From NCBI GenBank assembly GCA_032986305.1, contig GCA_032986305.1_3672.1: a stretch of 64,000 bases of DNA. One strand, written 5' to 3'. Shown piece after piece: positions 59,651 through 63,352 of the stretch; position 1 is the first letter of the stretch; the number at the start of each line of letters is the position of its first letter. The translations under genes were made by a program, and so were the position numbers. Source of the DNA: a phage. The notes under the pieces were generated by a model. The model had not been told where the DNA came from, made no database searches, and worked only from the letters and a program-made list of their open reading frames with translations.

Positions 59651-59727
59651 TGGTCTCCACGGAGTGATTCGAACACTCGACCTCCTGATCCCAAATCAGG
59701 CGCTCTACCAAGCTGAGCTACGCGGAG
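59651..59727 (-). tRNA. tRNA-Pro (anticodon TGG)
   Basis: Manual fold: acceptor CTCCGCG/CGTGGAG, D-arm TAGCTCAGCTTGGTAGAGC, anticodon loop TTTGGGA, T-arm GAGTGTTCGAATCACTC, encoded CCA. Confidence 0.75.
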
Positions 59728-59738
59728 TATTTACTATT

Positions 59739-59813
59739 TGGTGGCCCTGGGTGGAATTGAACCACCGTCTGGCGATTATGAGTCGCTTGCTTGAACCTTC
59801 CAGCTACAGGGCC
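59739..59813 (-). tRNA. tRNA-Met (anticodon CAT; Ile-lysidine type not excluded)
   Basis: Manual fold: acceptor GGCCCTG/CAGGGCC, anticodon loop CTCATAA, T-loop GGTTCAATTCC, encoded CCA. Confidence 0.7.
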
Positions 59814-59814
59814 T

Positions 59815-59890
59815 TGGTGCTGATGGCAGGACTTGAACCTGCAACCTATTGATTACAAATCAATTGCACTACCAATTGTGCTACATCAGC
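59815..59890 (-). tRNA. tRNA-Thr (anticodon TGT)
   Basis: Manual fold: acceptor GCTGATG/CATCAGC, D-arm GCACAATTGGTAGTGC, anticodon arm ATTGA-TTTGTAA-TCAAT, T-arm GCAGGTTCAAGTCCTGC, CCA. Confidence 0.8.
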
Positions 59891-59895
59891 AAAAA

Positions 59896-59994
59896 GGTGC
59901 TAGGCGGTGGAATCGAACCACCTATGTATTCAACGACTACCTCGTCTATTTTCAGGATTAAAAATCCTCGCCCTTGCCAAAGGGCTTACCTAGC
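59896..59994 (-). tRNA. atypical tRNA-like gene (about 99 nt; canonical reading of the loop would give anticodon TTT)
   Basis: Good acceptor (GCTAGGT/GCCTAGC), D-arm (GCCC-TTTGGCAA-GGGC) and T-arm (GGTGG-TTCGATT-CCACC), but about 30 nt separate the anticodon stem from the T-arm; CCA not encoded. Confidence 0.45.
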
Positions 59995-60092
59995 TCAGTA
60001 TGTTGACCATGTTGCTAGTCGGCGATGACGACTGTAACATTTGATAATCCGGTTCTGCTTCCGGCTTTCGCTTAATTACAAGGTCAACAATG

Positions 60093-60183
60093 TGGCGGAG
60101 AGTAATGGAATCGAACCATCATCGAGTCATCCTCAATGGGACGGTTTTCAAGACCGCTTGAGCACCATTGCTCCCTACCCTCC
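60093..60183 (-). tRNA. tRNA-Ser (anticodon TGA), long variable arm
   Basis: Manual fold: acceptor GGAGGGT/ACTCTCC, anticodon arm GCGGT-CTTGAAA-ACCGT, long variable arm, T-loop TTCGATT, CCA. Confidence 0.65.
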
Positions 60184-60297
60184 TTTATAAATTATACTGA
60201 TAATGACACTGATTTTCGAGCAGTTAGTGACTAGTATAAACGACGATAAATATCAATGCCATTATCTGTATTATTTACGCATCTAAAAATATAAATT

Positions 60298-60384
60298 TGG
60301 TGGGGAGTGGTGGAGTCGAACCACCCGAGTCGCAATGACAATAGATTTACAGTCTACACCGCTACCTCTACGGGATAACTCCCC
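60298..60384 (-). tRNA. tRNA-Tyr (anticodon GTA), long variable arm
   Basis: Manual fold: acceptor GGGGAGT/ACTCCCC, anticodon arm GTAGA-CTGTAAA-TCTAT, variable arm, T-arm GGTGGTTCGACTCCACC, CCA. Confidence 0.7.
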
Positions 60385-60388
60385 AATT

Positions 60389-60463
60389 TGGCACCCCGTA
60401 CTGGACTCGAACCAGTGTCAACGGCTTAGAAGGCCGCTGCTTTATCCACTAAGCTAACAGGGC
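60389..60463 (-). tRNA. tRNA-Arg (anticodon TCT)
   Basis: Manual fold: acceptor GCCCTGT/ACGGGGT, D-arm GCTT-AGTGGATA-AAGC, anticodon arm GCGGC-CTTCTAA-GCCGT, T-arm ACTGGTTCGAGTCCAGT, CCA. Confidence 0.75.
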
Positions 60464-60559
60464 ACTGGGTGGCTTTCTTTTACACCTTAGCCGCCAGAAA
60501 AGGTGGGAGACCATGTTTACAATATTACACTGTTAAGCAAAGTTTGTCAAGAAAATATT

Positions 60560-60898
60560 TTAGCTATTGCTAACAGGCTGTATTTCTGTAGTAAATGGCA
60601 TAAAAGGTGCTGGTTTTTCAGCCTCTTCCACTACCATCTCTTCCTCTTCACCAAACATCTCATCATATTCTTCCTGCATTCGGTCTGCCTTATCAAGAAC
60701 ATACTCTGCAATGCTTTGACGAATATTTTGTTTGGTTTTCGGGTCCAACATCAGCTCTCTTAAAACTTTGTGAGCTTCTGGAACCATCGCTATAAAAGAT
60801 TCCTTCATATCAAGGATGTTCTTCTCTAGCTGAATGGCGTTGGACTCCTCTTTCAGAGGTCTGCCTCTACGGCGACGCTTTTTAGTTGTATCCGCCAT
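60560..60898 (-). CDS. hypothetical basic/acidic protein (112 aa)
   Basis: ORF track 60560..61018 trimmed to Met (MADTTKKRRRRGRP) preceded by GGAGG and the promoter at 60927-60955. Confidence 0.45.
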   Translation of the reverse strand: MADTTKKRRRRGRPLKEESNAIQLEKNILDMKESFIAMVPEAHKVLRELMLDPKTKQNIRQSIAEYVLDKADRMQEEYDEMFGEEEEMVVEEAEKPAPFMPFTTEIQPVSNS

Positions 60899-60926
60899 GT
60901 TTCCTCCATTATCACGTGATAGGTGG

Positions 60927-60955
60927 ATTTTATCATAGCAAATACTGATTGTCAA
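60927..60955 (-). promoter_or_regulatory. sigma70-like promoter
   Basis: Minus strand TTGACA (60950-60955), 17-nt spacer, TAAAAT (60927-60932). Confidence 0.55.
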
Positions 60956-60960
60956 GTTCG

Positions 60961-61200
60961 CCGCAGGGTGGTATTCCCTGCGACTTGTCCAGCGTCCTGG
61001 ACCAGCAAGACCCAACAAGTGGGTTACCAGAGGCCTATTACCCGCGCTTCGGCTCGACCTTGTTACAGGTTGGCTGGGGTCACATCGTCATGTGCTGGCT
61101 GCCCCTACCATTTTAAGTGTGGTGCACTATCAAGCCCTCTAAGGGGAACTCAGCCTTCTCCGAACCCTGTTTCAAAGCATCCAGAGATAAAGCCATCAAA
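60961..61200. other. GC-rich structured island A (candidate structured RNA or foreign insert)
   Basis: About 240 bp of high GC in an AT-rich context with consecutive hairpins (cgcaggg-tggtatt-ccctgcg; gtccag-cgtc-ctggac; gcgc-ttcg-gc); no convincing coding potential. Confidence 0.3.
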
Positions 61201-61244
61201 TTCATCTTTAAATTGGATATTCATCATGATACACGAAAACAACC

Positions 61245-61487
61245 TCATTGTAAAGCACAAATAAATAAAACATACTTAATTTGTTTGTTATCAGGCTCAG
61301 GGTAGAAGTAGAAGATCTTGCTATCACCGATCTGAACACCACCATCCCAACAACATAGCCCATAACCTGTATTCATACAAGCTAAGTCGTTGGCAAAATC
61401 TATTGCATCATCCAGTGCACGAAATTCACCTTCATCTTCTAAATAATCCTCATTCATGGAACGAAAAACGAGCTTAACCTTAAACAT
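61245..61487 (-). CDS. hypothetical protein (80 aa)
   Basis: ORF in minus-strand array. Confidence 0.4.
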   Translation of the reverse strand: MFKVKLVFRSMNEDYLEDEGEFRALDDAIDFANDLACMNTGYGLCCWDGGVQIGDSKIFYFYPEPDNKQIKYVLFICALQ

Positions 61488-61563
61488 AGCATTACCTGTA
61501 GACCTCGTAAGTTAAAATTGCATCACATCATATTGCAGATCTTATCAGGTAACACTATTTTTG

Positions 61564-61773
61564 TCAACAGATTCCGGCCTTATCCTTCCTGTCTGCGTAT
61601 TCTTTAATCGCAACCTCATCTGCATTAGTGACCAGGTCTTCAAAGTAACTCTCAAGCTCCTCGTCAATGTCAGGAGACCAGCCCTTTTTCCTGTCAGTGT
61701 GAATCGCAGACTTGTTAAACTTAGTACAGTTCTTTGCTACCGGATTGTTCATTAAGCACCCCTCAGCGTTCAT
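61564..61773 (-). CDS. hypothetical protein (69 aa)
   Basis: ORF overlapping upstream gene stop. Confidence 0.35.
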   Translation of the reverse strand: MNAEGCLMNNPVAKNCTKFNKSAIHTDRKKGWSPDIDEELESYFEDLVTNADEVAIKEYADRKDKAGIC

Positions 61774-62341
61774 AGTAAATCTTATTTAACATTACCTCAT
61801 CCTTTGCAGAAAGGATATCTAGATATGCATCACCGAATCTACCTGCAACAACCTCTGCATGATACATCACTTCGTTAATATCGTCAAGAGGGATAACTGG
61901 ATGACCGTATCTCTCTGAGTATTGTCTCAGAGTGCGATGTAGGGAGTCATCATCATAGGCAGACTTTTTAATATCGCAAACACGACGAATAGCCTTGATG
62001 TCGAAAAACCCTGTACGATACCAACCAAGAAAAAGGTTTCGTGCAGTGTCAACATCTACATCAATACCATTAAGAACCTTATCTACAAGATAGCTGTCAT
62101 CCTTTGGACCAGCTTCCTTAGTGCGAATGTAGTTGCCATCTTTTCCAGGTGACATCTCCTTCTCATCACCAACCTGCATGCCATCATTTGGCGGTGTTAG
62201 CCACTTATCCGGATGCTTACGATCACGAGCGTTAGAATGATTACGCTGGAAACCAGGCTTCCACTTGAAAGTTTTCTCCATCTGTTCTTCATTCTGATAA
62301 CGTTTTGCAATCTTTTCACGGTCATCTTTGCGTGAACCCAT
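61763..62341 (-). CDS. hypothetical protein (192 aa)
   Basis: ORF with AGGAGG RBS. Confidence 0.45.
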   Translation of the reverse strand: MGSRKDDREKIAKRYQNEEQMEKTFKWKPGFQRNHSNARDRKHPDKWLTPPNDGMQVGDEKEMSPGKDGNYIRTKEAGPKDDSYLVDKVLNGIDVDVDTARNLFLGWYRTGFFDIKAIRRVCDIKKSAYDDDSLHRTLRQYSERYGHPVIPLDDINEVMYHAEVVAGRFGDAYLDILSAKDEVMLNKIYYER

Positions 62342-62460
62342 AGCTGCCTCCTCTTCAAGTTATAGAAAAACTCACTGTATCACTTTGTAACGAGCTTTTC
62401 TATCAAACTGGTGCGATTGCATTACCTGGTATAGTTTATATAGCTGTGGAGCGATTTAGG

Positions 62461-62700
62461 GGCCTTCTTGTCAGTTTCCACACATAAACTTCATCCAAGC
62501 TCGCGCGGGAGGCTCTCAACCGACTCCTTACGGCGCTGGCAAGCTTTCGTCGGTGGTCCACATCAGTGCTCGGCCTTTGGCCTGCGCTATCGCTTCGCTC
62601 CCACACATGTTAACAGACCTGCATGTATGCACTTCTGTTATTGTGTGCACCAAGGAGGCCCGGCATCTCGCCCCTCGTAGGCGAGTGCCAATGAAGGGCC
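62461..62700. other. GC-rich structured island B (candidate structured RNA or foreign insert)
   Basis: About 240 bp of high GC directly upstream (minus sense) of the 61763..62341 gene; multiple potential stems; only an implausible 70-aa plus ORF. Confidence 0.3.
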
Positions 62701-62844
62701 GACACTACCTATAGTAAGTAATAATTTTAAAACATGGTACTTAGGATCTAGTATATTCTACATAAGTTAAGTATATGTACTTAGTACCATAAGTACTAGA
62801 TCTTTTATTTTTTATTATTTAGTTATTTTAGTTATATTCTTTAT
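62701..62844. other. AT-rich tract with short inverted repeats (candidate DNA-unwinding or regulatory region)
   Basis: Very AT-rich 140 bp containing gtacttag / tactag-type inverted repeats, adjacent to the palindrome array. Confidence 0.35.
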
Positions 62845-62928
62845 GTGTCCGTATCACGGACAGTTAGTGTCCGTATTACGGACAGATGTGTCCGCGTGAC
62901 GGACAGTAGTGTCCGTATCACGGACAGT
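62845..62928. repeat. array of four 18-bp palindromic sites (TGTCCG-N6-CGGACA) at 21-22 bp spacing
   Basis: tgtccgtatcacggacag (x2), tgtccgtattacggacag, tgtccgcgtgacggacag; perfect half-site symmetry; spacing of about two helical turns. Confidence 0.8.
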
Positions 62929-63001
62929 TACTGACCTCTGTTCCAGAGCGAACATAAAACATACGAATCCTTATAGTACAGATATTTAAGTTTTTACTGG
63001 T

Positions 63002-63352
63002 CTAACCAGTTGTTGACATTCGAATAACCTCTTCTGGTGGCAAAACTTTGGAAAATGTACATCTTTTACCTCTCCCTTGTGTGGATATTTCAACCACTCC
63101 TGCACATTCTAAAGTTTTAACACACGCTGCTGCTTTTGTTTTCTTTATCCCAACATCTGCTGCAATTTTCCTTGTGCTGGGTGTGAAGCGTGAATTTCCT
63201 CCAAGCTTATACCAGTTGTGCAGGTAGCAGTATACGATCTTGTCATATAAGTCAAGAACAACAACCTCCCCAGTTGTGTCATTCAAAACTTTTGACATAG
63301 ACAGTATTTCAAGGGGGACTTTAAGATATAGCAGCTTATCCCCATCTTTCAT
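63002..63352 (-). CDS. putative winged-helix DNA-binding protein (116 aa)
   Basis: Segment TRKIAADVGIKKTKAAACVKTLECAGVVEI has HTH-like character; gene lies directly beside the palindrome array. Confidence 0.4.
   Translation of the reverse strand: MKDGDKLLYLKVPLEILSMSKVLNDTTGEVVVLDLYDKIVYCYLHNWYKLGGNSRFTPSTRKIAADVGIKKTKAAACVKTLECAGVVEISTQGRGKRCTFSKVLPPEEVIRMSTTG

Follow-up and report, generated by a model that had tools for sequence, protein, structure and literature searches.

The window, by which we mean the whole analysed stretch of 64,000 nucleotides (nt) of a phage genome (assembly GCA_032986305.1, contig GCA_032986305.1_3672.1), contains a GC-rich island at 60961-61200, between two small genes. 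Comparison of 401 bases around the island with phage records assigned the window to an rV5-like Escherichia phage (Vequintavirus). These bases are 100% identical to the Escherichia phages nom and PDX and match 119 rV5-like (Vequintavirus) records at 90-100% identity, and the whole island is present there. All genes in this part of the window lie on the minus strand, and ARAGORN places a cluster of seven transfer RNA (tRNA) genes at 59651-60463 on the same strand, five of which are also recognised by the Rfam model RF00005. Judged from sequence comparison, the island holds a structured non-coding RNA of about 190 nt, running from 61149 to about 60958 on the minus strand, the strand of all neighbouring genes and of the tRNA cluster. 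The RNA belongs to a family found in T4 and many other virulent phages, mostly within tRNA gene clusters, and its core recalls the part of RNase P that grips tRNA.

Architecture of the RNA

Members of the family share one order of strands. From the 5' end, the first half consists of the 5' strand of helix P1, an internal or hairpin loop with the 5' strand of a pseudoknot, an optional hairpin P2, the 3' strand of P1, and the 5' strand of a closing helix (Pc) followed by one or two A residues. The second half consists of a hairpin CC-UGUAAnAA-GG, a mini-hairpin of 2 base pairs (bp), the sequence CGGUAA(N), the 3' strand of Pc, a short linker and the 3' strand of the pseudoknot. The order of strands therefore makes the fold a nested double pseudoknot.

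In the window (all positions on the minus strand), P1 lies within 61072..61105 and pairs GGGG at 61102-61105 with CCCC at 61076-61079. Its internal loop, CAGCCAG, holds the pseudoknot 5' strand GCCAG (61095-61099), and the helix encloses P2, CACAU-GACG-AUGUG (61081-61094). The conserved core of 49 nt follows at 61029..61077 and reads, in order, closing helix, CCUGUAAnAAGG, mini-hairpin, CGGUAA and closing helix, where Pc pairs GCC at 61072-61074 with GGC at 61033-61035. The core hairpin CC-UGUAACAA-GG (61058-61069) holds a T-loop-like UGUAA, the mini-hairpin occupies 61043-61057, and a second T-loop-like sequence, CGG(G)UAAU, lies at 61037-61044. The pseudoknot is completed by CUGGU at 61026..61030, which pairs with GCCAG in the loop of P1 and has equivalent pairings in relatives.

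On either side of this unit lies a further domain. The 5' domain (61106..61149) is made of the hairpin CCCC-UUAG-AGGG (61135-61146), CUUGAUAGUGC and the hairpin ACCA-CACUUAAAA-UGGU (61107-61123); it is invariant within Vequintavirus and hence gives no covariation evidence. The 3' domain has three hairpins, ACCCA-CUUG-UUGGGU (61010-61024), CUUG..GUCCAG-GACG-CUGGAC..AAG (60984-61009) and UCGCAGGG-AAUACCA-CCCUGCGGCGA (60958-60983), and is exchanged for a different one in L116, a distant relative (related loci are referred to by L and a number).

Distribution among phages

In a sensitive blastn search against phages, 44 nt of the core (61034-61077) matched the unannotated spacer between denV and vs.8 of T4 and about 460 T4-like phages with 86-88% identity. 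Outside the core rV5 and T4 diverge, yet the upstream architecture is shared, being GGGG-cagccag-CACAU-gacg-AUGUG-a-CCCC in rV5 and GGGAA-caaccugga-CCUCAU-gauuau-AUGAGG-ga-UUCCC in T4. Further members were gathered by exact-pattern scans of IMG/VR and by GenBank searches. The scans of IMG/VR recovered several dozen distinct members, among them T4-like members on contigs of 160-177 kb, rV5-like members (L088, L098, L116, L156, L160 and L188), members on contigs of 46-49 kb (L005, L007, L019 and L038), the 70.7-kb Klebsiella phage KpCHEMY26 (L079), a 360-kb jumbo phage (L014) and others, while GenBank added the Klebsiella phages KpCHEMY26 and Pylas, phAPEC8-like phages of 146-151 kb and Vibrio phages. 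Where 11-13 nt separate AAGG from CGGUAA the flanks covary, and matches with wider spacing resemble coding sequence or chance. Two tandem copies about 110 nt apart occur in L074 and in some T4-like phages (L004 5092-5250, L077 9021-9180, L074 830-962); the mini-hairpin differs in the second copy, and the first pentamer is a variant in one copy each of L077 and L074 (UGUGA, UGCAA).

A separate conserved class of loci, spaced by 29 nt (L017, L024, L025, L028, L039, L040 and others), reads ...CGAG CCUGUAA(A/U)AAGG UGGGAAUGUUG CGGUAA UAACUCAAG, or ...AAGGUGGGAAUGUUGCGGUAA, and runs into an intrinsic terminator. Both pentamers are present there, but a covariance model of the core (R1) gives only 17-20 bits, and the class was left out of the family for this low score as a different or very distant RNA.

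R1, which was built from an alignment of 42 distinct core sequences (A1), matches the 64 kb of the window at a single site (61029-61077 minus, 52.8 bits, E = 7e-17), and a second copy of the RNA in the window was thus dropped from consideration. True phage members score 45-66 bits. When one genome from each of 185,579 bacterial and archaeal species was scanned, 14 pattern matches were obtained with R1 scores of 17-33 bits; these are without the closing helix, and a tRNA gene accompanies just one of them in the sequence retrieved, about 3 kb off. No true member was therefore found among these species, the pattern matches being at chance level, and because they are low-scoring and chance-like the family appears, from these scans, to be restricted to phages, mostly virulent ones. 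Nor did the island have a blastn match in 5,426 E. coli genomes. An earlier note on this DNA had considered a remnant of host or other foreign DNA, which neither search bears out.

Curated resources did not recognise the RNA. With Rfam 15 (4,227 models) at the gathering threshold, only tRNAs scored in the whole window, and the same was seen for the related loci L002 and L004-L008. When 60850-61350 was searched at E up to 10, four weak matches of 13-17 bits appeared (three small nucleolar RNA families and one toxic small RNA). The earlier note had reckoned that random GC fluctuation would leave neither an Rfam match nor conservation in related genomes; the Rfam match is indeed lacking, whereas conservation is strong. 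A literature search found no described T4 or rV5 RNA at this site and no phage T-loop RNA. No Rfam family covers the RNA: it resembles the RNAs of phage tRNA islands and the double T-loop RNAs, and is a member of none of them, so it looks like an uncurated RNA family. A survey of viral RNAs covered 10,006 candidates and predicted 8,495 structured RNA candidates in DNA phages (Fremin et al. 2023, PMC10690425; IMG/VR). Its text mentions no T4 or tRNA-island motif with this core, and the survey may list the family as an unnamed candidate.

Covariation and the folded strand

Alignment of the whole element across subfamilies with MAFFT gave no usable consensus fold, and for this reason the core alignment A1 and a subfamily alignment of 16 T4-like sequences (A2) were used. 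In A1 the Pc pairs 5-44 and 6-43 are paired in 42/42 members, using CG, AU, GC and UA, and the mini-hairpin pair 26-33 uses CG, UA and GC. Paired cells make up 83% of the alignment positions proposed to pair, against 69% in shuffles, and there are 55 double-sided changes against 19, a value that none of the 500 shuffles reached (0/500). When the partner columns were slid, pairing fell to 21-47%. In A2 the P1 pair 13-60 changes from GC to CG in 5/16 sequences, and three pairs of the pseudoknot that joins the 5' internal loop to the tail behind Pc covary, namely 19-115 (CG/AU/UA, 100% paired), 20-114 (GC/CG) and 17-117 (AU/GU/CG). Counterparts of this pseudoknot can be drawn in rV5 (GCCAG/CUGGU), L116 (GAGG/CCUC), L106 (ACCG/CGGU), the L005 group (CGGA/UCCG) and L014 (CGGU/GCCG), and in slur16 (L148) it has moved to CCAGC/GCUGG.

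The helices outside the core change in the same manner. Compared with the window, L116 has GGAAC/GUUCC for GGGG/CCCC in P1 and CUACG/CGUAG for CACAU/AUGUG in P2, with the same GACG loop. In L098 the first two hairpins of the 3' domain carry compensatory changes, ACCCA/UGGGU to UCCCA/UGGGA and GUCCAG/CUGGAC to GCUCAG/CUGAGC, and the other variants of this domain are changes of A to G giving G-U pairs, or changes restricted to loops. The frequent G-U pairs indicate that the minus strand is the folded one.

The earlier note had described a markedly GC-rich island dense with short perfect hairpins that have stable loops. The GC content is 0.56-0.61 over 60960-61140 (in segments of 120 nt) compared with about 0.29-0.45 in the flanks, as described, and perfect hairpins are seen on the minus strand (CACAU-GACG-AUGUG, ACCCA-CUUG-UUGGGU, GUCCAG-GACG-CUGGAC and GCAGGG-AAUACCA-CCCUGC). 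The predicted folding energy of the region, however, is not clearly better than that of dinucleotide shuffles: z is -1.39 for the minus and -0.67 for the plus strand of 60950-61210 (261 nt), and -0.81 for 60957-61150 (194 nt). The stability of the island alone is not above chance, and the evidence for structure is for this reason comparative. This speaks against a structured RNA, as does the fact that the near-invariant residues of the core were partly imposed by the search patterns, which is not so for the covariation of the flanks. Conservation across unrelated phage families together with base-pair covariation nevertheless supports the candidate stable non-coding RNA of the earlier note, and we are highly confident that the family and its fold are real.

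That the island has no function, being a chance fluctuation in GC, a fragment of host or foreign DNA, or a site acting at the level of DNA (an origin, a packaging site or a mobile repeat), is hardly credible. The folding energy and the lack of an Rfam match would agree with it, but the core persists in different phage families, where base-pair changes are compensatory and G-U pairs strand-specific, its orientation to the tRNA genes is fixed, E. coli genomes do not match it and the window has a single copy.

Boundaries and transcription

The upper part of the island, about 50 bp at 61150-61200, is filled by the end of a small open reading frame (ORF) of 32 amino acids (aa; MRLFSCIMMNIQFKDEFDGFISGCFETGFGEG) at 61150..61248 on the minus strand, the start of which overlaps the stop of an upstream 80-aa ORF (ATGA). 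The peptide is kept in eight Vequintavirus variants and the substitutions among relatives are almost all synonymous (GAA/GAG, TTT/TTC, TCT/TCC, TGC/TGT, GGG/GGA, TTC/TTT), although only some GenBank records annotate it as a coding sequence of 99 nt. By this pattern of substitutions the ORF is under purifying selection; it lies outside the RNA and marks its 5' boundary. Below 61150 indels of 1 nt and of other non-triplet lengths distinguish the relatives, and hence they share no reading frame there. The view of the earlier note that the island holds no credible ORF is thus correct for 60958-61149 and fails for 61150-61200. A 113-aa ORF on the plus strand and a 30-aa ORF on the minus strand across the island were rejected for frame-breaking indels and non-synonymous drift. 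A 43-nt hairpin at 61152-61194, at one time taken as the 5' hairpin of the RNA, was dropped, the apparent structure-preserving changes being synonymous third-codon changes in the 32-aa ORF.

The RNA begins right after the stop of this ORF and ends just before the next promoter. Similarity of the window to L116 begins exactly at GUUCCCCUUAGAGGG (61149), with the 5' domain, and in L116 7 nt separate the conserved 5' end from a TTGACA-17-TATACT promoter upstream. About 170 nt further on, after the RNA, L116 has a second promoter, at the same position as the promoter at 60955..60927 of the window. The latter (60927..60955, minus) is a sigma-70-like promoter of the next gene, a 112-aa ORF at 60560-60898, and marks the 3' limit of the RNA; with TTGACA-17-TAAAAT, 11/12 consensus matches and a TG, it agrees with the strong promoter that the earlier note had placed just downstream of the island in the minus sense. 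In L120 a 13-bp terminator follows the RNA. In the window itself, a promoter immediately ahead of 61149 and a terminator behind the RNA are both lacking, which tells against a separately made RNA there; a discrete transcript would thus require processing. Its transcription would start at a promoter further upstream (61254..61226 or 61567..61539, each no more than a consensus match), with processing afterwards. Over 60400-62900 the minus strand has no terminator-like site (a GC-rich hairpin with a U tract), and a role as intrinsic terminator or 3' end structure only was therefore discarded.

These features bear on whether the RNA controls the gene that follows. The earlier note had suggested a leader, which is unlikely in the window because the strong promoter separates the RNA from the next gene; relatives also have a promoter (L116) or a terminator (L120) of their own. 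A cis-regulatory element in general, such as a riboswitch or translational operator that senses a small molecule, an ion or tRNA and controls the downstream gene, is in our view rather unlikely. The compact pseudoknotted fold and the invariant junction nucleotides are typical of aptamers, and in T4-like phages the element is always 45-70 nt upstream of the vs.8 start, whichever gene (denV or another) stands upstream. On the other side are the promoter between the RNA and the next gene in both the window and L116, the terminator in L120, the position of the RNA after a tRNA in L014 and L106, and downstream genes that are unrelated across groups. No Rfam riboswitch matched, and no alternative terminator and no fold sequestering the Shine-Dalgarno sequence was found.

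In T4 the element has been annotated as protein. The reference record NC_000866 (and OL964735) extends the vs.8 coding sequence about 40 codons upstream, across the RNA element (L009 2791-2913; T4 record 64790-64912). In 17/20 T4-like loci a stop codon interrupts this frame between motif and conserved vs.8 start, so the extension is probably an annotation artefact.

Association with tRNA genes

The RNA of the window lies 566 nt from a tRNA-Arg gene. A tRNA gene is found within 1 kb in 17/26 non-T4 viral loci, or 18/27 with the window, and always on the same strand (18/18), while the pattern matches of chance type have one within 1 kb in 0/46 and 0/23 cases (0/69). In L014 and L106 the RNA comes after a tRNA, with the motif 46-53 nt on and the first helix of the RNA, as read from the sequence, only about 6-20 nt past the tRNA end. 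The adjacent tRNAs are of many specificities. No protein family is common to the neighbourhoods of the different phage groups (terminase alone is shared by a few loci, through synteny), and Pfam searches of the flanking ORFs and of T4 vs.8 were uninformative.

Within the tRNA cluster of the window, 59896-59994 (minus) is an oversized tRNA-like gene of 99 nt, to which ARAGORN gives a four-base anticodon (atcc) and no amino-acid identity. Its homologue in phage Gotham is annotated as a 97-nt tRNA-Lys-TTT. The gene scores below the Rfam tRNA threshold and is kept in L088 and L098, and it may be an intron-containing or otherwise unusual tRNA.

Several phage RNAs associated with tRNA genes have been described, and each offers a comparison. 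The T4 species 1 and 2 RNAs (rnaC and rnaD), ROOL and GOLLD are likewise phage-encoded structured RNAs in or near tRNA islands with undefined function, but they have no sequence or model similarity to the RNA described here: in T4, R1 finds only the denV/vs.8 spacer (L009 2856-2903) and not rnaC/rnaD (L009 8909-9172). ROOL and GOLLD are 500-800 nt long and form multimeric cages (bioRxiv 10.1101/2024.12.08.627333), compared with 110-190 nt for our family. A degenerate tRNA-like relic, or a processing signal in polycistronic tRNA transcripts that serves as a substrate of RNase P, E or III and has no function as a free RNA, seems very improbable. The RNA sits in tRNA clusters on the same strand and has T-loop-like pentamers, and the two stable RNAs of T4 are processed from its tRNA cluster, all of which would fit. 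However, ARAGORN and the Rfam tRNA model (RF00005) are silent in 60958-61149, where there is no cloverleaf and no acceptor end, and a canonical tRNA was rejected on this ground. The core is also far more conserved than expected of a relic, R1 is blank on rnaC and rnaD, and the T4-like copies lie outside the tRNA cluster.

The theta ribozymes of gut phages, which are HDV-like, provide another parallel; they lie beside phage tRNAs, within 5 nt, trim them, and have their catalytic C at the first position of J4/2 (PMC10879173). Our family shares with them the nested double-pseudoknot order of strands and the occurrence near phage tRNA genes. P1-5', pseudoknot-5', hairpin, P1-3', Pc domain and pseudoknot-3' correspond to P1, P2, P3, P1', P4 and P2' of HDV-like ribozymes, and the short distance between tRNA and first helix in L106 and L014 would suit a new class of self-cleaving or tRNA-processing ribozyme. 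We nevertheless regard such a ribozyme as quite improbable. The catalytic cytosine at the first linker position is not conserved: in most members, among them L098, L088, T4 and a second T4-like subgroup, the linker starts with U or A, and in L106 the whole linker (UUUAAUU) is free of C. A 3-bp P3 whose L3 loop could form P1.1 is missing, and Rfam gave no HDV, hammerhead, twister, pistol or hatchet match. The distance to tRNA is tens to hundreds of nt, with most members 140-580 nt from the nearest one (range 46-576 nt in the loci measured), and the invariant core sits in the domain equivalent to P4, which is dispensable in HDV-like ribozymes. An HDV-like ribozyme was thus ruled out by the missing catalytic C and the tRNA distances, although the helix order agrees and is backed by covariation. 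A hammerhead-like CUGAGUGA/GAAC in the second T4-like subgroup was also set aside, as it has no Rfam match and is missing from rV5.

T-loop-like pentamers and docking of tRNA

In the core, the pentamers UGUAA and CGGUA flank a hairpin. The earlier note had found no tRNA T-loop, which holds for the canonical GTTCGAATC arm and misses these two T-loop-like pentamers. The published signature of the double T-loop is UGNNA...AGNNA, with U/A, G and A as its most conserved residues (PMC3664808). In RNase P two T-loops interlock into a platform that stacks on the tRNA elbow, and the same module occurs in the T-box stem I and in the ribosome's L1 stalk (Lehmann et al., PMC3664808).

The closest likeness is to the region J11/12-P12-J12/13 of RNase P, where GGGUGAAAGG, then P12, then (A/C)GG(U/C)AAAC follow one another in the same order as the pentamers of the phage RNA. 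The Rfam consensus of RNase P reads GGGUGAAAaGG...uagGcAAaCCCC, or in order GGGUGAAAaGG, P12 and uAGGcAAaCC, and the E. coli RNA reads CACGGUAAACUCC / CACGGUAAAC, which contains CGGUA. UGUAA...hairpin...CGGUAA parallels GGGUGAAA...P12...(A/C)GG(U/C)AAA. Both RNAs have a U-G-N-R-A pentamer, a hairpin and an (A/C)-G-G-Y-A pentamer with A-rich residues, all inside a helix; CGGUA-A is identical in E. coli, and both are linked to tRNA. The phage RNA differs in that it is without the P4 catalytic core or the other conserved regions, is about 110-190 nt long instead of about 380, has the 2-bp mini-hairpin in place of P12, holds the first pentamer in a hairpin loop of its own and has a pseudoknot. The catalytic-domain sequences GAGGAAAGUCC and ACAGAAnCCGGCUUA of RNase P are absent in the island, and neither RF00010 nor RF00011 matched at E up to 10.

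The first pentamer was left free in the searches, and the second was fixed by the search patterns. In genuine members the first is UGUAA (44), UGUGA (3), UGCAA (1), UAUAA (2) or UGUAG (3), which fits U-G-Y-R-A. The second, CGGUA, begins with C and not A, a feature shared with E. coli RNase P.

Besides RNase P, it is the distal region of T-box stem I and the L1 stalk of 23S rRNA that dock the tRNA elbow by two interlocked T-loops (PMC3664808, PMC4810234). T-boxes have these elements in the opposite order to the phage RNA, with the AGNNA bulge ahead of the UGNNA apical loop; the phage RNA also has no specifier loop, T-box sequence or antiterminator. Rfam gave no T-box match in the window, where no terminator follows the RNA and a promoter stands before the next gene. 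T-boxes are not known from E. coli or its phages.

We tentatively propose that the phage RNA, made together with the phage tRNAs, would dock tRNA elbows with an interlocked double T-loop. Docking is preferred because of the order of the elements, the identical CGGUA-A and the tRNA context, and it is proposed to be independent of the anticodon because the neighbouring tRNAs are of many kinds. A tRNA bound in this way might be aided in precursor processing or folding, shielded from the tRNA-cleaving defences of the host, or sensed. That the RNA works by docking tRNA is possible rather than probable in our judgement. With the same reservation, it would join RNase P, T-box leaders and the L1 stalk as a fourth natural class of RNA whose double T-loop platform, like that of RNase P, grips the tRNA elbow, and it would be a small phage RNA, found even in T4, that handles tRNAs as a chaperone, in processing or in protection from host cleavage. 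Such an RNA might itself be catalytic. Taken as a whole, with family, fold and docking in one blended judgement, the explanation is evenly balanced.

A number of observations pull the other way. The resemblance behind docking is at the level of motifs only: R1 gives only 5.8 bits (E = 0.7) against E. coli rnpB, no statistical similarity, and direct similarity to RNase P was therefore rejected. Within each pentamer the five positions are conserved to about the same degree, unlike a U-G-N-N-A with a free middle, three members have G at position 5 of the first pentamer, and in the first core hairpin 3 nt and not 2 follow the pentamer. The T4-like members lie about 6 kb from the tRNA cluster, always directly upstream of vs.8, and their position therefore suits a cis-regulatory role there.

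The equal conservation of the pentamers also bears on an alternative to docking, in which the core is recognised by a protein of phage or host (for instance an enzyme that processes RNA, L1 or another ribosomal protein, or a sequestered defence nuclease) and the RNA binds or decoys this protein with no direct contact to tRNA. Conservation beyond U-G..A fits sequence-specific protein contacts, and a binding site for a macromolecule would agree with some 20 nucleotides that hardly vary between very different phages. In the ribosome, the L1 stalk has the same kind of double T-loop module and binds protein L1 (PMC3664808). Yet no protein gene accompanies the RNA from one phage group to the next, the only consistent neighbours being tRNA genes, and no candidate partner emerged. 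We consider this alternative unlikely.

Other elements in the window and in relatives

A second GC-rich island without an ORF (62440-62720 minus, GC 0.57), here called island B, lies elsewhere in the window. It has no convincing Rfam match (the best is rli43, at 21 bits against a gathering score of 100), and it is kept in the same 119 Vequintavirus records and matches no other phage group. Island B was rejected as a relative of the first island, as the core motif is missing and there is no match across families. Just upstream of it, 62845-62935 (minus) contains four copies of a unit of about 19 nt, CTGTCCGT(G/C/A)A(T/C)(A/G)CGGACAC, each an inverted repeat (GTCCGT..ACGGAC). From their sequence these repeats look like an operator array for a DNA-binding protein; the adjoining ORF (63002-63352) has weak HTH_36/DUF6945 matches just under the Pfam gathering scores.

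Repeated long hairpins of about 85 nt (CACAACAGGUAAGAGCA...UGCUCUUAUCGUUGUG) flank the RNA in L005 (1900-2300), L007, L019, L038 and L079. A single copy, 94% identical, is found in an unannotated part of the temperate phages HK620 (AF335538 15976-16103) and HK633, and the hairpin may be another uncharacterised RNA element. Moreover, 18 GenBank records (MG0656xx) bear the name 'Campylobacter phage' and give Campylobacter or C. jejuni as their host, yet around the first island their sequence agrees with rV5-like coliphages at 99-100% identity, which suggests mislabelled or contaminated submissions.

Significance

Should the family be as uncharacterised as it seems, T4, the best-studied phage, contains a strongly conserved, pseudoknotted RNA that has been overlooked; the T4 reference genome labels it as the N-terminal part of vs.8, a hypothetical protein. 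With R1 and the alignments, the RNA can be annotated in hundreds of phage genomes, and ORFs miscalled over the element can be corrected. The RNA is a small and tractable addition to the puzzling RNAs of phage tRNA islands, such as the T4 species 1 and 2 RNAs, ROOL and GOLLD, and unlike those it offers a concrete, testable idea, namely that such RNAs dock tRNA. Cleavage of tRNA is now recognised as a major bacterial strategy against phages, and phage tRNA clusters as a counter-measure. If docking is true, an RNA that binds the tRNA elbow could belong to this arms race over tRNA cleavage.

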